Origin: Candidatus Xenobia bacterium
GTDB taxonomy: Bacteria; Vulcanimicrobiota; Xenobia; Xenobiales; QWHO01
NCBI GenBank assembly: GCA_045863235.1
Contig: BTUM01000018.1
Coordinates: forward strand, 1-64,000
Direction of reading: 5' to 3'
Length of the DNA: 64,000 bases
Shown here: in pieces, positions 29,701 to 39,447 of the stretch
How the letters are laid out: each line of letters starts with the position of its first letter
How positions within the stretch are numbered: position 1 is the first letter of the stretch
Notes under the pieces: generated by a model
What the model was told of the DNA's origin: nothing
Seen by the model: only the letters and a program-made list of their open reading frames with translations
Databases searched by the model: none
Position numbers and translations under genes: made by a program

Positions 29701-30135
29701 ATCAACGCCCAGGGCAACCTCGCGGGCACCGCCCGCGAGCTCGGCATCCTGCCCGACGACGTGACCGGCTCCTCGCTCACCCGGGGTCAGGTCTTTGCTA
29801 TCCTCGACAGCGTCTTCTTCAATCTGCGCCTCCCCGATGGCCGCACCCTGTATCAGACCCAGTTCGACTCCGAGCCCCCGGCCATCGCCGTGGTGCCGTT
29901 CCCGGCTGTGTGCAGCGAGAGCTCTGTCACCCTTTCGGGCAGCGTCAGCCCGGGCACCACCCTGCTGCGAGTTGGTTACAGTGACGCCGACGTGGTGGTG
30001 CCGGACGATGATTGGAACTGGAGCGCCACCATCCCCCTGCAGCCCGGTCTCAACACCATTACGGTCCAGGCTCACGACGCGGCCGGCAACGTCACCACCC
30101 AGACCATTCAGGTCCTGTGCACGGTGGGCTCGTGA
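26713..30135 (+). CDS. Filamentous haemagglutinin-family (TpsA-like) exoprotein
   Basis: Signal peptide (ALA|Q), TPS domain (AVLNRVTG...FLVNPSGIVFG), GDGGFLETS, WLIDP, Pro-rich linker and C-terminal Ig-like domain (LQPGLNTITVQAHDAAGN). Confidence 0.88.
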   Translation: MVMLMRRLMALSLAALSLTSPALAQPQDGRVVSGQAVIQAGPGGLTIRQGTDKAILEWRSFSIPTSQFVRFLQPSQASAVLNRVTGVNPSLIMGELSANGRVFLVNPSGIVFGPTATVNVGSLFATTMQLSNQDFLDGRYTFTPDPTRPDSFVINQGAIQAADGGYVVLMAPLVSNQGSIVARLGTVTLAAVPRTTVNFDGQGLVHYVVPSTPGQDVVLPSDLVNDVIGSLVASSTTDASGVELQDGQVRLIGAGGMALNEGRIEASGGQVSLQGDRVGLLGPATVDVSAPSQAGRVDLQGERYAYVGPEATIRADATEQGDGGEVRVLAGDSTVVDGLVSVRGGPQGGDGGFLETSAGRVSLNRAPDLAAPEGKAGTWLIDPNNITIWNLTEGNTTSPSPFISLGDDASIQPITLESALASGGTVIVQTGTGAPNLQAGDIYVRAPINPISTPGTSTLLLQAHRDIVVSAPIGGQAPLNLELQANWLGTTTGSVVLAADPQTGGGNVATLGGSFTASGSDIVQDPGLLLATSGGNVQLTQTGSVALNGLVDAGPGAVTVQAGGPVTASGVTAQTLNVQAGGNVQLNSQVSQLGLDTPLDAVVTNVGDLTVSVGQRARPNSLTLANSGAVTNLATDPLRAGAVNLTAAGPVTLSTEVDVLAIIAGTQNIDVRQAGNLALAGIRGNDVAIAGTADLTVLGVTAAGSADLRAGGSILGAPLSAGANLTARANSSLVAGGLIGTLAVPLSVDVLGSLATTAGGVQSGVSANLVGAVAPSNTLLVPAPLPPGEVRFNGVDVLAPPVVPPVTPPVTPPVVPPVVPPVVPPVDPVGPVPPPVDPPLVPVDPPAADPPALTLDPGVPAIDPDLPAEIVEAYGAGQQQITHPIPPADPGAPPEPGSPPDTSSAQASLGFTSTMSNLAPPQPGSTDRFVLAALLQASVSDPGMSLGQLENLSQPMPLSELSAFLVGVLGSPALSGDLSAPATLESLLQALFSVYQINAQGNLAGTARELGILPDDVTGSSLTRGQVFAILDSVFFNLRLPDGRTLYQTQFDSEPPAIAVVPFPAVCSESSVTLSGSVSPGTTLLRVGYSDADVVVPDDDWNWSATIPLQPGLNTITVQAHDAAGNVTTQTIQVLCTVGS
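29111..29240 (+). repeat. 12-bp degenerate tandem repeat (PPVV/PPVT/PPVD) in the TpsA linker
   Basis: ccgccggtggtg / cctccggtcgtg units recur in tandem. Confidence 0.75.
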
Positions 30136-30728
30136 GAGGCCTGGTCCCGGTGCTGCTCTTGCTGTTGCTGACCCTGGCGCCGGCCCCCGGGGCCATTTCC
30201 CGCGAGGATGAGCTGAAGGTGCTGGTGGTATACAACTTCCTCAAGTTCGTGGAGTGGCCCGAATCCAAGCCCAGGCTGGTGGTGGGCACCATGAGCACGG
30301 TGGGCAAGGACCCGCTGGCGGTGGCGCTGGCCGGTCTGAACGGGCGCATGGTGGCCGACAAGCCGGTGATGGTGCGGCCGGTGCGAACCCTGGAGGAGGC
30401 CTGCGAGGTGGATTGCCTCTACGTTGGCGCCTCGCGGGCCGCCCAGCTGCCTTCCATTCTGGAAGCGGTCAGCAAGTATCCGGTGCTGACCGTGAGCGAT
30501 CTACCCGGCTTTGCCGAGAAGGGTGGGGCCCTGGGGCTCTATCGCGACGCCGACCGAATTCGCTTTGCGGCCAACCTGCGCAGTCTGCGCCAGAGCGGAC
30601 TCAAGGTCAGCTCCCGGCTGCTCAGCCTGGCCCGGATCGTCGACCGCGATCCGCTGCGCAGTCACATCATCGAGATCGCCATGGACCCCGAGGCCTTTGT
30701 TCGCGCCGCTTCCGCCACCGGACGCTGA
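30132..30728 (+). CDS. YfiR family (DUF4154) periplasmic protein
   Basis: GTGA overlap with TpsA, signal peptide, LKVLVVYNFLKFVEWP, VLTVSD and LKVSSRLLSLA motifs. Confidence 0.85.
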   Translation: MRGLVPVLLLLLLTLAPAPGAISREDELKVLVVYNFLKFVEWPESKPRLVVGTMSTVGKDPLAVALAGLNGRMVADKPVMVRPVRTLEEACEVDCLYVGASRAAQLPSILEAVSKYPVLTVSDLPGFAEKGGALGLYRDADRIRFAANLRSLRQSGLKVSSRLLSLARIVDRDPLRSHIIEIAMDPEAFVRAASATGR

Positions 30729-31863: not shown

Positions 31864-32145
31864 TCAGCGCGACGACCCGGGTGTTTGCGGTGTCTGCGGG
31901 TGAGCGATCTCGAATCGGCCCTCGGCGACTGGCTGCACGGGCGGCCTCATGACCATTCCCCCGTTGACGGGCGGCTCAGGTCTCGATGGGCGGCGATGCA
32001 TGGCAGGTTGGGTGCGCGGGGGTGGTGGCACAGGCTCGGGCTCGGGCTCCATGGCTCGGGCCAGCAGGGCGGCCGAGACCGCGGCCCCGCCCGCGAAGAG
32101 CAGGTCGGCCAGGAACTGGCGGCGCTTTCGGGTCGGCTCGCTCAT
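31864..32145 (-). CDS. Tat-signal Pro-rich small protein 3 (putative radical SAM substrate)
   Basis: KRRQFLADLLFAGG signal shared with two paralogs. ATGA overlap with the upstream gene. Confidence 0.75.
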   Translation of the reverse strand: MSEPTRKRRQFLADLLFAGGAAVSAALLARAMEPEPEPVPPPPRTQPAMHRRPSRPEPPVNGGMVMRPPVQPVAEGRFEIAHPQTPQTPGSSR

Positions 32146-32420
32146 TGCGGAGGAGCCACCACCTGTGGCTGGGGAGCCATCACCTGGCCCGGGACCAGCG
32201 GACGAGCGCCGCCGTCGACGTTCGGCTCGACCGGCTCGCAGGTGCTGACCGGCGTGGGCGTGGGCGTGTTGACGGGCGCCACCTTGCCCATGACCTTAGG
32301 CTCGGGCTCAGGAGGGGTGTTGCCCAGGTAGCGGGCTGCCAGGGCGGCCGCGCCCAGGGCCCCGCCCGCGAACAGGGCGTCGGCCAGAAATTGGCGTCGT
32401 TTCAGTTTGTCGCCACTCAT
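32142..32420 (-). CDS. Tat-signal Pro-rich small protein 2 (putative radical SAM substrate)
   Basis: KRRQFLADALFAGG signal. ATGA overlap. Confidence 0.78.
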   Translation of the reverse strand: MSGDKLKRRQFLADALFAGGALGAAALAARYLGNTPPEPEPKVMGKVAPVNTPTPTPVSTCEPVEPNVDGGARPLVPGQVMAPQPQVVAPPQ

Positions 32421-32704
32421 CGGGCTTTCACCTCGCCTTCCACGACCGGGGATGGGCTCTGGACGGGCCTCATCTCCCCCAGGGCCGGGGGAGCAACATC
32501 GCCCTTGACCCGGGGCGCCTCCACCTCGCCCCGCATGCGCGGGGGCTCGGGCGATGGGGTGGACGACGGACTGGGCGGCGGTGTCGGGGGCGGATCCTTC
32601 TGGGCCATGGCCCAGCGGCTCACCAGCCCGGCACCGGCCATGGCCGTGCCGGCGAACAGCATGTCGGCGATGAAGCGGCGGCGCTTGAGGCGATCTTCCG
32701 ACAT
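32417..32704 (-). CDS. Tat-signal Pro-rich small protein 1 (putative radical SAM substrate), 95 aa
   Basis: True start at ATG 32704 overlaps the rSAM stop (TGATG). KRRRFIADMLFAGT signal with an AMA|Q cleavage-like site. Confidence 0.78.
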   Translation of the reverse strand: MSEDRLKRRRFIADMLFAGTAMAGAGLVSRWAMAQKDPPPTPPPSPSSTPSPEPPRMRGEVEAPRVKGDVAPPALGEMRPVQSPSPVVEGEVKAR

Positions 32705-33735
32705 CAGGCGGCCACCATCTGCAGCTCTTCGAGATACTGCCGGGCGGCTTCCACCGAGTCGCCGATCAGCTCGGCGAAGAAGCGGTGTACGCTCAACTGC
32801 TGCTGGATGTCGCCCGGCATCAGCGACACGCAGGCGCAGGGGCCGCTGGTGCCGCACGAGGACATCTTCTCGGCCGAGCAGCTGGTCACCGCCTGCACCC
32901 GATCGAGCAGCGGGCCGGTGTCCACCGTGCCTACCTGCACATCCACCCTGGTATCGGTGCCCACCAGGCGCGAGCAGGGGTAGAGCTTGCCCCGCGGCGA
33001 GACGGCCACGTCTTTGACCCCGAAGCTGCAGTGAGAGGTACGCGGCGCGCGCGGGTGCTGATCGGCAAACGGCGAGACGTGGTAGGGCTCGGGGGTGGCC
33101 ATGGAGAGGAAGACCACCCGGGCCATGTCGTGATAGACCCGGCGGGCCGTCTCGCGGGCGGCCTCGTCCCAGGCGGCCTCCATGTTGGGCAGCAGCGAGA
33201 CGCGCGAGACGCCCAGGCGGTACATCTGCTCCAGGGCGGCCGGAACCCCGCCGATGGTCTCGGGGTTGAGTACCATCAGCACGTGCAGGCGCTCGAGCGC
33301 TTCGGTGGCCGCCTCCAGGTTGCGCCACACCAGCTCGGAGGAGCTGCGCCCGTTGACGAAGGGGCGATGGCGGTCGTGGTCGGCCCCCATCCCGTCGATG
33401 CTGAGGGCCACCCAGAAGCCGTAATGGCGCAGGAAGTCGAGCTGCTTTTTGGTGAGGATGGTGGCGTTGGTGGTCAACGACAGCTCCAGGCGCCGGCCCT
33501 GGCGCTCTGCAAGGCGCGTGGCCAGGCGGGTCAGCCGGCTCATGGTCTTGAACTGCAGCATCGGCTCCCCGCCAAAGAACGAGACCCCCACGGTCTCCTC
33601 ACGCGGCCCGTGGAAGGCCATCTTGAGAGCCTTCCAGCCCAACTCCACCGGCATCGAGCGGTTGAACTTGTCGCCTGTGTAGCAGTAGCTGCAGGCCAGG
33701 TTGCACTGATGGGTCAGAACCAGCGAGACGCGCAC
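32704..33735 (-). CDS. Radical SAM protein with a C-terminal SPASM/twitch-like Cys region
   Basis: CNLACSYC motif, FFGGEPML, TTNAT, LSIDG, and C-terminal HCSFG...GKLYPC plus C-x7-C-x5-CAC. Confidence 0.9.
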   Translation of the reverse strand: MRVSLVLTHQCNLACSYCYTGDKFNRSMPVELGWKALKMAFHGPREETVGVSFFGGEPMLQFKTMSRLTRLATRLAERQGRRLELSLTTNATILTKKQLDFLRHYGFWVALSIDGMGADHDRHRPFVNGRSSSELVWRNLEAATEALERLHVLMVLNPETIGGVPAALEQMYRLGVSRVSLLPNMEAAWDEAARETARRVYHDMARVVFLSMATPEPYHVSPFADQHPRAPRTSHCSFGVKDVAVSPRGKLYPCSRLVGTDTRVDVQVGTVDTGPLLDRVQAVTSCSAEKMSSCGTSGPCACVSLMPGDIQQQLSVHRFFAELIGDSVEAARQYLEELQMVAA

Positions 33736-33830: not shown

Positions 33831-35255
33831 TCAGAGCAGGGGCACGAAAAGCCGGGCGACCCTGGTCCCCAGACGCGTGGCCAGGTTCAATCGCGTCAGC
33901 AGGTCGATGGAGAGCTTGCGAGCCACCGCAAAGTCGCTCGCGAGCATCGCTTCCATCTTCAGGGCGAAGGCCTGGTCAGCCACGATCAGGTTGCCCTCGA
34001 AGTTGAGGAACAAGGACCGGCTGTCCAGGTTCGAGCTGCCCACCCACGAGAGCCAGTCGTCCACCAGCATCACCTTGGAGTGGTTGTAATGGGGATACTC
34101 GTAGAACTGGATTCGGGTGTCACGAAGCTCGGGGATCAGGGCCAGCGCGGCCAGACGCATGGCGGGCTCGAAGCGAGCGGGGGGAAGAAGGATGCGCACC
34201 TCCACTCCCCGCAGATCGGCCATCTTCAAAGCTTTCAGGAGGGAAGAGTCGGGCAAGAAGTAGGGAGAGGCCAGCCACAGGCGGTGCCGGGCAGCGTTGA
34301 TGGACTCGAGGTAGGACATCACTCCAACCTGCATCGTATCGGCGGGCCCGCTGCTGAGGTAGGTGCAGGCCTGGTTTCCCCCGGCGGCCGGATGAGGCGT
34401 CCAGTCGACCGTGGGCAGCTCGCCCCGCGAGGCCCAGTAGAAGTCCTCGCAGAAGGCCAGCTGCACCCCCATCACGGCCGGCCCCTCGAGCACGGCATGA
34501 GTATCGCGCCAGGGGCCGAAGCGAGGGTCGCGGCCCAGGTGCCTGTCAGCGATGTTCATGCCTCCCACCAGGGCGACCCGCCCGTCCACCACGATGATCT
34601 TGCGATGGTTGCAGAAGTTCCACTGAAAGCTGTGACGCAGGCCTCGGGCGGCCCGGAAGGCCCTGGCATGGATGCCGGCTGCGCGCATCTCGTTGAGGAA
34701 GGCGCCTCGAATGGTGGGGCTGCCCAGCTCATCATAGACGAAGTAGACGCGCACTCCCTGGCGGGCCTTCTCGATCAGGTGTCGTTGCAGCGCCCGCCCG
34801 GAGTCGTCGTTGTGGACCTTGTAGAACAAGACCAGCACGTATTCCGTGGCCCGCTCGATCTCTTCGTGCATGCGAGCGTAGTGAGCCGGGCCGTCGATGA
34901 GTAGCTCCAGCTTGCACGAGTGGGTGAAAGGCGTGCGAGCGAGCTTCTCGAGCACCCGCAAGTTGGGGTCGTGGTAGCACCAGCGCGAAAGACCCTCCAG
35001 GATTTCGCGAATCGGCTGCGTCGAGCCTTGCCAGGCACTGGCTCTCAGCGGGTTGACGTAGCCTTCGAAGTGGGTGCTGCCGAAGACCAGGTAGAAGGGA
35101 AGCACCACGGCCGGGAAGGCCAGCAGGCTCAAAGACCAGGCCAGGGCTCCCTGGGGGGTGCTGGATTTCAAGATTGCATGCCCGGCGGCCAGCAGGCCCA
35201 GAAAGTGAAGGGTGGAGAGGACGATGAGCAAGGCTTCTCCCATGACGATGACCAT
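33831..35255 (-). CDS. cls: Cardiolipin synthase
   Basis: Two N-terminal TM helices, two HKD motifs (NHRKIIVVD, NHSKVMLVD), WRDTH and GSSNLDSRS. Confidence 0.9.
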   Translation of the reverse strand: MVIVMGEALLIVLSTLHFLGLLAAGHAILKSSTPQGALAWSLSLLAFPAVVLPFYLVFGSTHFEGYVNPLRASAWQGSTQPIREILEGLSRWCYHDPNLRVLEKLARTPFTHSCKLELLIDGPAHYARMHEEIERATEYVLVLFYKVHNDDSGRALQRHLIEKARQGVRVYFVYDELGSPTIRGAFLNEMRAAGIHARAFRAARGLRHSFQWNFCNHRKIIVVDGRVALVGGMNIADRHLGRDPRFGPWRDTHAVLEGPAVMGVQLAFCEDFYWASRGELPTVDWTPHPAAGGNQACTYLSSGPADTMQVGVMSYLESINAARHRLWLASPYFLPDSSLLKALKMADLRGVEVRILLPPARFEPAMRLAALALIPELRDTRIQFYEYPHYNHSKVMLVDDWLSWVGSSNLDSRSLFLNFEGNLIVADQAFALKMEAMLASDFAVARKLSIDLLTRLNLATRLGTRVARLFVPLL

Positions 35256-35336: not shown

Positions 35337-36305
35337 GTGCTGAGCCGACGCTGCTTTCTGGCCGGTCTGGTGGCGCTGGCCGCGGTCCCGGCCCGGGCCC
35401 GTCAGGCTACGGTCAGCCGGGCCCAGCTGAGCGACCTGATCAATCGCTCGAGCCCCCTCGCCCGCCAGATCCTGAACGGTTACGCGGCCGCCCCCGAGAG
35501 CTTTGGGGACGGCCTGCGCATTTCCCGCCTCGATCTCTGGCCCCTGGTCGAGGGCAAGCCGATGAACGACCTGGTGCAATGCGCCAACATCCTGGTCCAC
35601 GAGACATGTCATCTCTTTGCGCGCACTCAGGCCTTCGAGATGGATCGGCGGGCCCTGAGCGAGCCCGCCAGCCTGGTTGTTTTCCCAGAGCCGGGCAAGC
35701 GACTGTTCGTGCTCGGAGGGCCCAGCTTTCCGGCCCGTCAGGCGGTGAGCGCCTGCCCCGACTACCTGCGGGCCACTTTCCGCTTCAGCACCTACTTTGA
35801 CAGCTCCAACTCCCAACACGTCTGCCAGAAGGACGGCCTTTACGGCCTGCTCGACGAGATGAGCGCCTATTACTGCGGCAGCCGGGCGGCGGTCGAGCTG
35901 CTGACCTTCTTGAGCCAGAAACCGAAGCAGTATGCCGGCCTTTGGGCCGGGCTGCTGGCCGGTCCCGACGGTACCATGGCCGCCCAGCAAGAGTTCCGCG
36001 GCTACGTGCTGGCCTATCTCACCTGGGCTCGCGAGCACGAGAGCGAGGTGTTTCGCTCGCTGATGGCCAATCGCGGTCTGTGGCAGGCTTACGCGGCCAT
36101 CCAGAAGGCTTTCGCTGGCCTGGTGGAAGATTGGTATCATCGTCTGCCGGCACTGGCTCGGCAGGTGGGGGCCGAAGTGGCCCACGGGGCCATCCTGGTG
36201 CAGGGGCGGGGCTTGCGCCTGCAACAGGAGGGCTACCTCGAGCTCAAGTCCCGGTTGGACAAGGACCGCGAGCTGGGTGCCATGGAAGCTCGTTTGAAAG
36301 TATAA
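35337..36305 (+). CDS. Tat-exported hypothetical protein with an HExxH motif (possible metallopeptidase)
   Basis: SRRCFL Tat motif with ARA cleavage site, LVHETCH and a downstream LLDEMSAY. Confidence 0.65.
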   Translation: MLSRRCFLAGLVALAAVPARARQATVSRAQLSDLINRSSPLARQILNGYAAAPESFGDGLRISRLDLWPLVEGKPMNDLVQCANILVHETCHLFARTQAFEMDRRALSEPASLVVFPEPGKRLFVLGGPSFPARQAVSACPDYLRATFRFSTYFDSSNSQHVCQKDGLYGLLDEMSAYYCGSRAAVELLTFLSQKPKQYAGLWAGLLAGPDGTMAAQQEFRGYVLAYLTWAREHESEVFRSLMANRGLWQAYAAIQKAFAGLVEDWYHRLPALARQVGAEVAHGAILVQGRGLRLQQEGYLELKSRLDKDRELGAMEARLKV

Positions 36306-36329: not shown

Positions 36330-36686
36330 ATGGATCTCACCCCCGAGGATCGGATCAAGGTTTCTCAGGCCATCGCCAGCTGCTGGGCCATGCCCGAGTT
36401 CAAGGAACGCTTTCTGAGCGCTCCCCGCGAGGTGCTCGCCGAGCTTGGGGTGCAGATTCCTCCCGAGGTCGAGGTGCGCGTGGTCGCCGACACGCCCGAG
36501 GCGGTCTACGTCATTTTGCCTCGTCCCGATCTGCCCCAGTTCCTGGCCGCCGTGCTGCCCGGCGCCATCGGCCGCGAGCTGCGACTGGTGCAAAACGACG
36601 CGCGCCATCTGTACCTGCCGCTGCCCATGCCACCCTCGGGGTTGGTCAGCGCCATGCAGACCGGACTGGAGGGCATCGAGCCTTAG
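36330..36686 (+). CDS. NHLP (nitrile hydratase-like leader) domain protein
   Basis: CWAMPEFKERFLSAPREVLAELGVQIPPEVEVRVVADTPEAVYVILP leader pattern. GGAGG RBS. Confidence 0.75.
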   Translation: MDLTPEDRIKVSQAIASCWAMPEFKERFLSAPREVLAELGVQIPPEVEVRVVADTPEAVYVILPRPDLPQFLAAVLPGAIGRELRLVQNDARHLYLPLPMPPSGLVSAMQTGLEGIEP

Positions 36687-36765: not shown

Positions 36766-39447
36766 TCAGGGTCTGGCGAGGAGGTACACCTTGCCGTCCG
36801 CGGCGGTGACGAGCGAGAAATTACCTCGCATCATGCGGCCACCGAGCCAGTTGAAGGGTCCCTCTGGATCGGGGTTTCCGGTACGTCGGGTCGATGCCAC
36901 CACCGTATCCAGAGCCGTGGGTGCCCCACTGCGCGAGAACAGGACCGGCCCGCCGGCGTTGGCTCCCGCAACCTCGCCCTGGTCATTGATGGCCAGCCCG
37001 CTGCCGTTGCCCAGCGATCTGCCATCCACGGTGATCCGACCGTTGTCGGTCGCCAGGATCTGTCCTTCGTTATTCAGATCGATAGAGAACGGAGGCCCCG
37101 GAGTCGACAGGTTGCCGGGCGGGGGCGGCACCGGGATCGGAATCTTGAGCTCGGTCAGCGGATCGACATTGTAGAGGTTTTCGAGTACCGAAGGCTCCCT
37201 TCTGTGATCCTGAACATATGGGGTAATCACGGGTTTGAGCACGCCGCTGCTCAAATCCAGGCTGAAGTTCAAACCCACGATTCGACTGATCAAGCGGAGT
37301 GTAACCTTCACAGGAGTCTTGTCAAAGAGGCCCTTGTAGTTCGTGACCTCTAATGTGTCGCCCGGCTGAGCAGTGTCCGGCCGCGACCCGTTCCCGATCA
37401 GGAGCAGGTCGTCGTTGAGACCCGCGAGGGTGAAGCTCGCGGAGCCAAGCTTGCTTGGGATGCCGACTGCTTGGGTCGGCGCAAAACCCTGGTCCAGAAG
37501 GTCTTTGGTATCGGCTTGAACCGCCACGGCGACCCAGGCATCAAGCCCCTCCTGGAAAGTCCCGACCGCGTATGACCCCACACCCTGGGAACCCTCGACA
37601 CGGTCAGTCAAGAACAGGGGAATGAAGCTCGTTAGGCTCGCGCCCTTCGGAGGAGTGACTTCGAGTCTCTGCCCCTCGGAGGAGACATAGAAGACCTTCT
37701 TGGATGATTCGTCTTTGTACAAGACATCATCGTCACTGTTCAAAGCGGCAGCCTGGGACCCGGTAGACGCGATCTGCACCGGGTCTGCGCCAAAGGGTTT
37801 GAGGAAAAGGCCACTCTGGGTGGAGTCACCCGAAGCCGCGTTGTAGAGCACCGTGCCAGCGTCGTTCACGCCCAGGTATTGCACGCCCGGAGGATTAGGA
37901 AGTTCGTAGAGGCCCGGTGGAAGGACTCGAAATGTGATCAGAATGCTGCGACGGTCCACCATGAATTCATAGGTGGCTTCAGATTCGACTGGAGCTCCCT
38001 CCGGAGCAATAAACTCAACTGCCAGATCGGGCAAGTATTCTTTGACGTCATCCTTGGTGCCGGGAGTAGGCCTGAAAAAGGGCGGGTCAAAATGATGTAT
38101 CTCCTGGATGCCAAAGAAGCTCGTCAAGTATTTACCCGCGGTTCTTCCTGGCGGCGTAGGGACGTTAAGACGACCCCCGATCTCATTCCTGATTTCCTTG
38201 ATCTTTGTAATCCCAAAAGCACCGTTATTGTGCAGGACAAATCGCGCACGCCGGGAGAACCCTACCACCACCACGCTCGGTCGACGGGGAGAAGCCTTCA
38301 CGACTTTGTCTCCGGGCAATAGACAGGCGAGGTCACCCATGTTGATCATCGAGCAATTTCGGCCCTTATGATTCTGGTAGCATGAAAGGTCGGCAAATTT
38401 CAAAGTCGGATCGTCTTGCTTATCCGCCCGCAACCTGGTCAAGACGTCCTCGGCATTCTCAACCACGTTGTCGCCGGAACCCTCGGGGAAGAGCAACGCT
38501 GGCAGCACGAGCACGAGCGAGCGACGCAGAAGCTCGTACTCAAGGTCAGAGGCAAAGTTTTCGTTGAGACACGCGTTGACTTTGATGAACTGATCGCAAG
38601 TACTGAAGAAATACTTGACTTCGGCAGGAACGTCATCTCGGAACCTGGCTATCCCGTCATCAATGACGCAGTTCTGAACTGCCTCTGCAGGGGTGGCCGC
38701 CGCGTAAGGAACCTTCGGATCCGCGTAGGTCCCCAACCTCCCGGCGACCAGTTGGCGACGCTTGTTAAACGATAGAAGGGGAGGGAGCAGATCCGCCTCA
38801 GATGGAGGATCGAGTGTAGGGCCAATGGCGGCCGCTTGAATCGGGTCGGTCGTCCGAGGCTGGAGCCGGCCGCAAAATTCATCGATGTCACCGAAGCTCA
38901 TCCCACAGGGTCCATTGAAAATGAGCGGAACAATGACGGGATGGCCTCGGTCTCTGGCGATGCCCAGTTGCTCCACGGTGAACTCAAACGCTAAGCCAGG
39001 CTCAGAGGGGTGATAGAAGAAGCCGACGCTAGCGTCCGCTGGCTCCTGAAAGGCGAATGCACCATCCGCGTCCACCAGCACCTGCTGACTGCCCAACTCG
39101 GCTGTCCAACCGGCGGCAGGGGAGAGCGGCCAGATCACCATCTCTCCCTCCCCCAAAACCTGAAGATCACCCGACTCGATCTCGGCTTTCCCCTGGAGCA
39201 CTGCGGCACGTTCGCGTTCTGGAACCGCCATGACGGCAAGGGTTGCAACTCTCCCGGAGAAGGCCGGCGTGGTAGGGACTTGCGGTTGAGGGTTGACCTC
39301 ACCCCCGCCAGCCCCGACTGTGGTGGAACCCGATCCGCCGCAACCGCCAGCGACAGGAGCCAGAAGCAGGAGAACCAGGCCGAGCATCACTGCCCAATGC
39401 GTTGGGCCGACAACCGGTGGTCGGGAAACCGCTCGAGGGATTTTCAT
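36766..39447 (-). CDS. Large lipoprotein with a Cys-rich central region and C-terminal HAF-like repeats
   Basis: Lipobox AGGC followed by GGSGS. Repeats GVNDAG, LNSDDD, LNDDL, LNNEGQ and INDQGEVAG. Confidence 0.7.
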   Translation of the reverse strand: MKIPRAVSRPPVVGPTHWAVMLGLVLLLLAPVAGGCGGSGSTTVGAGGGEVNPQPQVPTTPAFSGRVATLAVMAVPERERAAVLQGKAEIESGDLQVLGEGEMVIWPLSPAAGWTAELGSQQVLVDADGAFAFQEPADASVGFFYHPSEPGLAFEFTVEQLGIARDRGHPVIVPLIFNGPCGMSFGDIDEFCGRLQPRTTDPIQAAAIGPTLDPPSEADLLPPLLSFNKRRQLVAGRLGTYADPKVPYAAATPAEAVQNCVIDDGIARFRDDVPAEVKYFFSTCDQFIKVNACLNENFASDLEYELLRRSLVLVLPALLFPEGSGDNVVENAEDVLTRLRADKQDDPTLKFADLSCYQNHKGRNCSMINMGDLACLLPGDKVVKASPRRPSVVVVGFSRRARFVLHNNGAFGITKIKEIRNEIGGRLNVPTPPGRTAGKYLTSFFGIQEIHHFDPPFFRPTPGTKDDVKEYLPDLAVEFIAPEGAPVESEATYEFMVDRRSILITFRVLPPGLYELPNPPGVQYLGVNDAGTVLYNAASGDSTQSGLFLKPFGADPVQIASTGSQAAALNSDDDVLYKDESSKKVFYVSSEGQRLEVTPPKGASLTSFIPLFLTDRVEGSQGVGSYAVGTFQEGLDAWVAVAVQADTKDLLDQGFAPTQAVGIPSKLGSASFTLAGLNDDLLLIGNGSRPDTAQPGDTLEVTNYKGLFDKTPVKVTLRLISRIVGLNFSLDLSSGVLKPVITPYVQDHRREPSVLENLYNVDPLTELKIPIPVPPPPGNLSTPGPPFSIDLNNEGQILATDNGRITVDGRSLGNGSGLAINDQGEVAGANAGGPVLFSRSGAPTALDTVVASTRRTGNPDPEGPFNWLGGRMMRGNFSLVTAADGKVYLLARP

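Follow-up and report, generated by a model that had tools for sequence, protein, structure and literature searches.

Between positions 31,864 and 33,735 of a 64,000-nucleotide stretch of DNA (contig BTUM01000018.1 of a Candidatus Xenobia bacterium; the whole stretch is called the window below) a gene for a radical S-adenosylmethionine (radical SAM) enzyme is followed by three genes for small, mutually similar proteins. The locus raises the question whether these four genes form a peptide-modification system and, if so, which part of the small proteins is recognised, which is changed and where the product goes. On balance we favour the reading that the cassette is a two-component system of this kind, specific to one Eremiobacterota/Vulcanimicrobiota lineage, in which the enzyme would dock on the N-terminal head of the small proteins and the modified tail would be exported.

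All four genes lie on the minus strand, the enzyme gene first, and each start overlaps the preceding stop, the junctions reading TGATG, ATGA and ATGA (coordinates are collected in Table 1). The other two small proteins are 44% and 40% identical to small protein 1. The three share a head in which K7, R8, R9, F11, A13, D14, L16, F17, A18 and G19 are invariant, and their tails contain one Cys in total and neither Trp nor Tyr after the hydrophobic stretch. The initial annotation had described the translational coupling, the shared head and the residue counts in the same way, and its observation is correct at every point that can be checked. Contigs from the RNA libraries of three studies (sludge, wastewater and bioreactor) match the cassette at no less than 99% identity. 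Two of them span the junction of the enzyme gene and gene 1 (32492–32743 and 32555–32763) and one (32254–32802) runs from gene 2 through gene 1 into the enzyme gene, which is a weak indication that the cassette is transcribed as one unit, as the libraries possibly include DNA and neither strand nor level can be read from them. A scan for promoters and terminators gave nothing above shuffled sequences.

The pairing is not a matter of chance, because the same pair recurs in relatives. A large protein database holds 441 relatives of the enzyme at E ≤ 0.001. The best 120 of them are 276–373 residues long, are named only 'radical SAM protein', 'uncharacterized protein' or 'hypothetical protein', and come mostly from sources labelled Eremiobacteraeota, Vulcanimicrobiota or Xenobia; the labels Armatimonadetes and Phycisphaerales occur singly. 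An enzyme homolog at E ≤ 1e-30 is present in 18 of 301 genomes of the phylum, at 23 places, of which 21 can be assessed, the remaining two (L022 and L029) being cut by contig ends. Directly downstream of the enzyme gene, 18 of these 21 places have one to eight small genes with an RR-x-F-L-x-D-x-L-F head; a relative with 83% identity (L002) has eight in tandem. A metagenome scan with the family alignment returned 79 loci with one complete family member (L046, 45% identity), which is also paired, so that the neighbours for which the initial annotation had proposed to look are found at 19 of 22 assessable loci. Most metagenome loci are remoter radical SAM proteins (25–41% identity) without such neighbours, and three (L047–L049) are cut at contig ends. 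A scan of genome contigs with the single enzyme protein found only two true relatives.

Both partners occur in 17 of the 301 genomes, the enzyme alone in one (G040, where its gene sits at a contig edge), the small protein alone in one (G106, a 65% complete genome) and neither in 282; these genomes are related to each other, so that the count cannot serve as an independent statistical test. Uncultured Eremiobacterota with large genomes, found in sludge and bioreactor samples, carry the system. Across 16 extended loci and the window nothing is conserved apart from the enzyme and the small genes, and no conserved protease, transporter or protein with a recognition element (RRE) of ribosomally synthesised, post-translationally modified peptides (RiPPs) was found among the clustered neighbours there. 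The clustering used a crude gene-calling heuristic based on G+C at third codon positions and retained some shadow open reading frames (ORFs), clusters 7 and 9 being artefacts. Taken together, the tandem paralogs, the conserved head, the variable tails, the co-occurrence and the lack of a curated family support the view that the enzyme and the head-bearing small proteins form a conserved system with features of peptide or protein modification.

The radical SAM enzyme and the systems it resembles

The enzyme matches the Pfam family Radical_SAM (PF04055) with 72.9 bits against a gathering cut-off of 29.5, and also Fer4_12. In the family alignment the three Cys of the CxxxCxxC motif (C11, C15 and C18) are invariant in 42 of 42 sequences, as are the auxiliary C236, C254, C300 and C302; C294 is kept in 38 of the 42. 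The usual SPASM pattern comprises seven C-terminal Cys for two auxiliary clusters. Only four to five are kept here, so that one auxiliary cluster of the twitch type fits better than a two-cluster SPASM domain, and Pfam detects no SPASM domain in the enzyme at E ≤ 0.01. Since the fold still superposes on CteB and on the anaerobic sulfatase-maturating enzyme (anSME), a twitch-like or reduced SPASM domain is the description that fits better. Of the "SPASM/twitch-like tail" of the initial annotation, the twitch-like half is thus the better fit. Its statement that an RRE is absent is borne out: the enzyme begins directly with the radical SAM core, and the family profile (positions 3–306) aligns to CteB residues 99–412, so that a counterpart of the N-terminal ~98 residues of CteB is missing.

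At E ≤ 0.01 the enzyme matches 67 NCBIfam families, and it lies below every cut-off among the best 25 of the 67, for which cut-offs were compared. The top match is the PapB family ranthipeptide maturase (NF047865, 170.6 bits against a cut-off of 340, profile positions 5–308 of 330), followed by the nif11-type maturase (TIGR04064, 118.1 against 518.7), QhpD-type (114 bits) and CcpM (108 bits) families. The SCIFF maturase of the CteB type (TIGR03974) scores 99.8 bits against 425 and matches only from profile position 100; HxsB (TIGR03978) scores 81.3 against 370 and the anaerobic sulfatase maturase (TIGR03942) 69 against 349. An AlphaFold2 model of the enzyme has a mean predicted local distance difference test score (pLDDT) of 92.3 and a predicted template modelling (TM) score of 0.89. 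The closest relative in the PDB is CteB (profile E 1.8e-42, Foldseek TM score 0.77–0.78), followed by anSME, ChlB and SkfB. Judged by sequence and predicted fold the enzyme is a CteB/PapB/anSME-like peptide maturase core, and its best matches (PapB, nif11, QhpD, CcpM, SCIFF, CteB, anSME) are all peptide or protein maturases. The initial annotation recognised no described family with this layout. The missed curated cut-offs agree with this, and so does the full-text literature (most subscription papers lie outside its coverage), in which neither the family nor RiPP precursors with a signal for twin-arginine translocation (Tat) were found described. The family may still figure as an uncharacterised cluster in a large radical SAM compendium.

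The likeness to CteB/CteA (SCIFF) and PapB/PapA (freyrasin) covers not only sequence and structure of the enzyme core, of which these are the best relatives, but also the small precursor gene beside the enzyme and substrates with repeated short motifs. The enzyme differs from both in scoring far under the two family cut-offs, in lacking the part that matches CteB residues 1–98 and in having only the four to five auxiliary Cys. The small proteins differ from CteA and PapA in being Cys-poor (0–1), proline-rich and provided with a signal-like head instead of a soluble leader; a PapB-type precursor with several Cys-x3-Asp/Glu units is absent, the three window tails holding one Cys between them. 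The enzyme anSME modifies proteins bearing a signal peptide in the cytoplasm before their export and recognises a short motif. The present enzyme resembles it in size and in its RRE-less architecture, anSME being the second-best structural match. In contrast to the anSME case no C/S-x-P-x-R motif is present here, the putative substrates are small, disordered and tandem, and no sulfatase was seen in the clustered neighbourhoods.

A further parallel is HXS (HxsA with HxsB, HxsC and HxsD). According to a preprint (bioRxiv 10.64898/2026.01.06.697848), radical SAM enzymes mature the small signal-bearing repeat protein HxsA, which is then active in the periplasm. What is shared is a signal-bearing repeat protein with radical SAM maturation, HxsB being a weak relative of the enzyme. 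HXS comprises two radical SAM enzymes and HxsD, His-x-Ser repeats, a peptidoglycan-binding domain and a role in phage defence, whereas here there is one radical SAM enzyme, a different repeat and no extra domain; neither a second radical SAM enzyme nor HxS repeats were seen in the cassette. On these comparisons the system belongs to none of the CteB/PapB, anSME and HXS families.

It could be asked whether the small proteins are substrates at all. They might instead be membrane-anchored partners of the enzyme, whose real substrate would be, e.g., the NHLP-type peptide encoded at 36330–36686 or a non-peptide molecule. The NHLP-leader gene lies only 2.6 kb away, it is directly divergent to the radical SAM gene in a genome of the same genus (G054, locus L002), the nif11/NHLP-type maturase family is the second-best match of the enzyme, and the head could well be an uncleaved anchor. 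On the other hand, an NHLP gene stands beside the radical SAM gene only in the window and in two genomes of the same genus, and at no other extended locus (the two genomes make up 4 of the 19 loci searched, and two of these four duplicate the same places). Furthermore, a conserved head followed by hypervariable repeat tails in as many as eight tandem paralogs is a pattern of precursors and not of anchors, and all strong matches of the enzyme are the peptide or protein maturases named above. We consider this explanation very unlikely. The NHLP peptide as a general substrate was rejected, since its gene accompanies the radical SAM gene within the genus only. The enzyme stays far below the cut-off of the nif11-type maturases.

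Proline-rich tails and the candidate chemistry

If the small proteins are the substrates, as we infer, the element that is modified should be found in their tails. A profile built from 31 sequences matches 91 proteins in a word-indexed database, all unnamed or 'hypothetical' and none with a Pfam domain, and proteins in 18 of the 301 phylum genomes. At 50% identity an exhaustive search gave 244 clusters (132 with E ≤ 1e-10), with lengths of 69–194 residues among the matches listed. Within the genome studied small protein 3 is the top match (E 2.2e-23).

Proline makes up 27% of the residues in 119 non-identical tails, which contain hardly any Trp and few Tyr or Phe residues. In these tails the strict pattern G-[DEKGQANR]-[VPM]-[AMVPKEI]-x-P was counted 153 times, whereas 500 shuffles gave 12.7 on average and never more than 24; a looser form of the repeat is present in 96 of the 119, usually in two to four copies each. 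The flanks are biased as well (Pro at -4 with a frequency of 0.64, Glu or Pro at -5, Leu/Val/Ile/Met at -2), so that the repeat unit reads (E)P-x-h-x-G-[DEK]-[VPM]-x-x-P, h being a hydrophobic residue. In the window the unit appears as GEVEAP, GDVAPP and GEVKAR in small protein 1 and, among others, as GKVAPV and GQVMAP in small protein 2. This repeated motif, which the initial annotation missed, is the best candidate for the modified or recognised element.

The second candidate is Cys, which is placed in the first third of the tail. Of 209 tails, 137 carry a single Cys, 25 carry two and 7 three, and 40 are free of it. The initial annotation had argued from the scarcity of Cys against thioether chemistry. 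Its count holds for the window, but the objection fails for the family, because most tails (169 of the 209) contain at least one Cys and because the nearest characterised enzymes form thioethers. This opens the way for products of the ranthipeptide or sactipeptide kind with a single thioether, in which the lone Cys would be linked to a residue near it, as by CteB, PapB and SkfB, and the Cys-less paralogs would not be substrates. Both nearest relatives point in this direction, PapB being the best NCBIfam match and CteB the best solved structure. Under a Poisson distribution of equal mean roughly 77 tails would have exactly one Cys, fewer than are seen. Asp or Glu is more frequent five and seven positions after the Cys (0.28 at +5 and 0.23 at +7, against 0.11), and PapB accepts Cys-to-Asp spacings of zero to six residues (PMC9413430). 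However, one subfamily of related sequences accounts for most of this Asp/Glu enrichment. Among close orthologs the Cys comes and goes (L001 has one in its paralog 3, the window has none there), two of the three window tails lack it, its spacing to the next motif does not surpass what random placement gives (49 observed; mean 42.9 and maximum 57 for random placement), and the enzyme family keeps fewer auxiliary Cys than the seven of the usual SPASM pattern. Such a thioether is possible but doubtful.

We therefore place first a change that does not depend on Cys and takes place within the repeat, either epimerisation or, at the invariant Gly or beside it, a cross-link or C-H functionalisation, and give it somewhat less than an even chance. 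It is ranked first because a fifth of the tails have no Cys and the only strongly conserved feature of the tail is the repeat with its fixed Gly and Pro. Chemistry of some other kind is rather unlikely, a little more so than the thioether.

One subtype of the family stands apart. Its members (L129, L130, L140, L141 and L145, in genomes G060, G100, G052 and G094) have an RR-(E/Q)-F-L-A-N-L-L-F head and an additional conserved (D/E)-G-W-x-L-P between the hydrophobic stretch and the proline-rich repeats, and all are orphans located away from a radical SAM gene.

The N-terminal head as a proposed docking site and export signal

The head contains a twin, often triple, Arg at about residue 8, followed by a median of 19 residues without charge, the conserved Asp excepted; Lys or Arg occurs in the next stretch in 156 of 209 members. 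Its conservation exceeds R-R-x-F-L, with D14, L16, F17 and G19 invariant in 31 sequences, in agreement with what the initial annotation had seen in three. The Tat signal family TIGR01409 is the commonest weak match, found in 14 of the 31 members (best E 0.014), and a genomic paralog with the same head (on contig C33 of the genome, G000) exceeds its cut-off with 18.6–20 bits against 16.7. TatC is encoded in the genome (212.7 bits). Neighbours of the head proteins in the Protein Atlas are Tat-signal proteins; all these feature scores are 0.79–0.81 and serve as leads only. A count of A-x-A cleavage sites gave no information, as Ala runs within the hydrophobic stretch also fit the pattern.

The strict head pattern occurs six times in the 8.36 Mb genome, and the profile adds a seventh, weaker match. 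Three of the six are the cassette genes, one is an orphan with the same kind of tail (contig C31) and two are precursors of the microviridin type (contigs C33 and C93). In the latter two the head is followed by a PFF leader motif and then by YPSDxD repeats; no ATP-grasp gene adjoins either of them, and eight MvdD-like ATP-grasp matches are found elsewhere in the genome. Similar genes are also present in G046, G074 and G106, and the C93 precursor adjoins two genes with a caspase domain (Peptidase_C14). A related, weaker head begins a 99-residue protein on contig C1, presumably a ChrA-like precursor, whose gene overlaps the start of a gene of the MbnB/TglH/ChrH family (L128:6294-7187, PF05114, 155 bits). 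As the head precedes a microviridin-type precursor that has its own PFF leader, its role there must be other than recruiting the ATP-grasp enzyme. Its presence on three precursor classes, which we take to be those of radical SAM, ATP-grasp (microviridin-like) and MbnB/ChrH-like systems, marks it primarily as a shared export or anchor module. Most simply, the head would be first of all a lineage-specific, Tat-like module for export or membrane anchoring.

These features also bear on whether the head is an export signal at all. In a classical cytoplasmic RiPP it would be a hydrophobic leader only, and release and export would be left to unlinked proteases and transporters. In favour of this, helical and conserved leaders are common among RiPPs, binding of the head to the enzyme is predicted (see below), and the window paralogs stay under the cut-off of the Tat model. 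Against this stand the twin Arg with its uncharged stretch and following basic residue, the location of the head in front of a complete microviridin-type leader, the lack of a conserved protease or transporter near the cassette, and the fact that the weak profile and language-model matches, though leads only, are all to Tat-signal proteins. We hold it to be very unlikely that the head has no export function.

The second function proposed for the head, that of a docking site, comes from modelling of the enzyme with a small protein, a check that the initial annotation had suggested. The complex model reaches an interaction prediction score from aligned errors (ipSAE) of 0.72 in three runs against 0.02 for the best of three controls; the mark of 0.72 is reached by 116 of 157 solved complexes and by 2 of 215 mismatched pairs, a calibration that holds only roughly because the model was run on alignments made for this analysis. 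At least 28% of contacts are shared between the runs, and the partner has a pLDDT of at least 47. Confident contacts involve small-protein residues 1–31 only, with the RRRFLADLLF segment, and on the enzyme side residues 144–145, 165–175, 203–218 and 335–342; the Arg residues are placed near enzyme residues 172–175 and 215–216. The interface residues E169, Y172, R173, G175, R206, S211, T214 and D/E215 are kept in enzymes found beside RRRFLAD heads and differ at the same positions both in the clade found beside RRRFLTD heads and in copies without such a neighbour. In G050 and G082, which have one radical SAM enzyme of each clade, the small genes beside each enzyme have the head subtype and the tail motif of its clade. 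Judging from the model and from this clade-level co-variation, the enzyme probably docks on the head. The suggestion of the initial annotation that the signal peptide doubles as the enzyme's leader is thus upheld in part: the head is Tat-like and is the part docked in the model, but it is shared with microviridin-like and ChrA-like precursors.

It may also be that the enzyme needs no leader. The head would then be an export or anchor signal only, and the enzyme would read the tail repeat or the context of the Cys directly, in the manner of anSME. The anSME-like size and the lack of an RRE would suit such an enzyme, the same head serves two other RiPP classes with other enzymes, and the tail motif is a second conserved element that differs by enzyme clade (LDGDVAxP/LGGKPMAP as opposed to PMPGQMxxP). 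On the contrary, none of the confident contacts of the model is on the tail, the interface residues track the head subtype, and the head is conserved well beyond R-R-x-F-L. Direct reading of the tail seems unlikely to us, though more plausible than a head without export function.

The following course of events would agree with docking on the head followed by export. A cytoplasmic radical SAM enzyme with one radical SAM cluster, probably one auxiliary cluster and no RRE would bind the new small proteins through the N-terminal RRRFLADLLFxGG helix, which would lie against enzyme helices 161–175 and 191–218 and the C-terminal helix. It would modify the disordered proline-rich tail, the likely targets being the repeat (two to four copies per tail) and/or the single Cys. 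The N-terminal module would then act as a signal or signal-anchor of the Tat type (less likely of the Sec type), and the modified tail would reach the periplasm or the cell surface through the general export machinery; the use of this machinery would account for the absence of a dedicated protease and transporter from the cassette. Descriptions of radical SAM peptide maturases usually include an RRE or a dedicated leader, together with a protease and a transporter for release.

Two known systems have a similar logic. Tat proofreading chaperones (TorD, DmsD and NapD type) are cytoplasmic proteins that hold the twin-arginine signal until maturation is done. If the complex model is right, a cytoplasmic protein would hold such a signal here too; in contrast to the chaperones, the putative binder would be the modifying enzyme itself, and it has no relation to them in sequence or fold. 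Prochlorosin-type systems use many precursors with one shared leader and one enzyme, which resembles the present set of precursors, some in tandem and some scattered as orphans, with variable tails behind a conserved head. The difference is that here three or more enzyme classes use the common head, which has the look of an export signal.

Several observations, besides the limits given above for the RNA libraries, the calibration of the complex model and the placement and loss of the tail Cys, weigh against the proposed system. Three assessable radical SAM loci (L018, L025 and L028) have no adjoining small gene, and orphan family members with G-x-h-x-x-P tails, far from any radical SAM gene, are numerous, also in other genomes. 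The mean hydropathy of the head stretch (1.8 over 19 residues) also fits an uncleaved membrane anchor. In the window TIGR01409 matches small protein 2 only, with 9.9 bits under the cut-off of 16.7, and does not match the other two. The use of the head by precursors of ATP-grasp and MbnB/ChrH-type enzymes weakens the idea of a specific radical SAM leader. The complex model scores a hydrophobic helix, and the fold of the partner itself is uncertain. The co-variation at the interface separates two clades only and is thus confounded with phylogeny. Finally, the product chemistry is entirely inferred, and the modification itself is predicted from genes and models.

A bolder proposal, which we put forward only tentatively and regard as unlikely to hold in full, is that this lineage has placed one Tat-type signal before at least three unrelated classes of RiPP precursor, in place of dedicated proteases and transporters. 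The RRE-less radical SAM enzyme would dock on the signal as its own proofreading chaperone, export would wait for the modification, and this so far undescribed change would be made on the h-x-G-x-h-x-x-P repeat, which is poor in Cys and aromatic residues.

Neighbouring genes and significance

The remaining genes around the cassette are listed in Table 1 together with the features discussed above. A counterpart of the cardiolipin synthase gene is found, among the clustered loci, only in a 95%-identical relative, and none lies between the NHLP gene and the radical SAM gene in L002; as this neighbourhood is not kept, the gene is probably outside the cassette. For the 341-residue ORF convergent with the small genes, too, the 95%-identical relative is the sole clustered locus with a counterpart. 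The N-terminus of this ORF gives the impression of a GT-B glycosyltransferase, and that of the 1140-residue secreted protein gives the impression of a haemagglutinin. The second half of the NHLP-leader protein resembles a repeat of the first. No maturase is evident beside its gene, and the adjoining ORF of 322 residues (35337–36305) has no Pfam or NCBIfam match. The G+C content dips at 37000–39000 (0.55–0.59 against 0.64–0.73 around), over an ORF of 893 residues (36766–39447, minus strand).

Table 1. Position of the cassette, its parts and other features; numbers alone refer to the window, those with a prefix to the contig or locus given.
Feature	Position	Strand	Description
Radical SAM enzyme gene	32704-33735	-	343 residues; GTG start; CNLACSYC at residues 11-18; no RRE; twitch-like C-terminal domain
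Small protein 1	32417-32704	-	95 residues; start overlaps the enzyme's stop by one base; tail without Cys
Small protein 2	32142-32420	-	92 residues; ATGA overlap; holds the sole Cys of the three tails
Small protein 3	31864-32145	-	93 residues; ATGA overlap; tail without Cys
N-terminal module, small protein 1 (residues 1-35)	32600-32704	-	Twin Arg, F-I-A-D-M-L-F-A-G, then uncharged stretch; predicted enzyme-contacting part
N-terminal module, small protein 2 (residues 1-35)	32316-32420	-	
N-terminal module, small protein 3 (residues 1-35)	32041-32145	-	
Microviridin/marinostatin-type precursor with twin-Arg head	G000:C33:24439-24777 = L126:5944-6282	-	NF033738, 15.1 bits
Microviridin/marinostatin-type precursor with twin-Arg head	G000:C93:28866-29219 = L127:5842-6195	-	NF033738, 30.3 bits (cut-off 26)
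Protein of 99 residues with related, weaker head (RRRLTDILYLGG)	G000:C1:215722-216021 = L128:5998-6297	+	N-C-P-A-C-G-M core
NHLP-leader-family protein	36330-36686	+	118 residues; TIGR03793, 58.4 bits (cut-off 50.9); single copy in genome
Cardiolipin synthase	33831-35255	-	TIGR04265, 311 bits (cut-off 290); 95 bases upstream of the radical SAM gene
ORF of 341 residues	30792-31817	+	Convergent with the small genes; no Pfam or NCBIfam match
YfiR/HmsC-like periplasmic protein	30012-30728	+	PF13689, 123 bits; follows the gene of the 1140-residue protein
Secreted protein of 1140 residues	26713-30135	+	Long (V/P)PP-rich stretch

If the proposed system is real, export signals can double as RiPP leaders or replace them, and the cassette would be a natural model for the coupling of cytoplasmic modification to Tat export. 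A repeat without fixed Cys, Trp, Tyr or His would then indicate a radical SAM chemistry different from the known cross-link classes, and the same head on microviridin-like and ChrA-like precursors would suggest a secretion strategy used throughout the lineage. Such systems may escape genome-mining tools geared to classical leaders, RREs and transporters.

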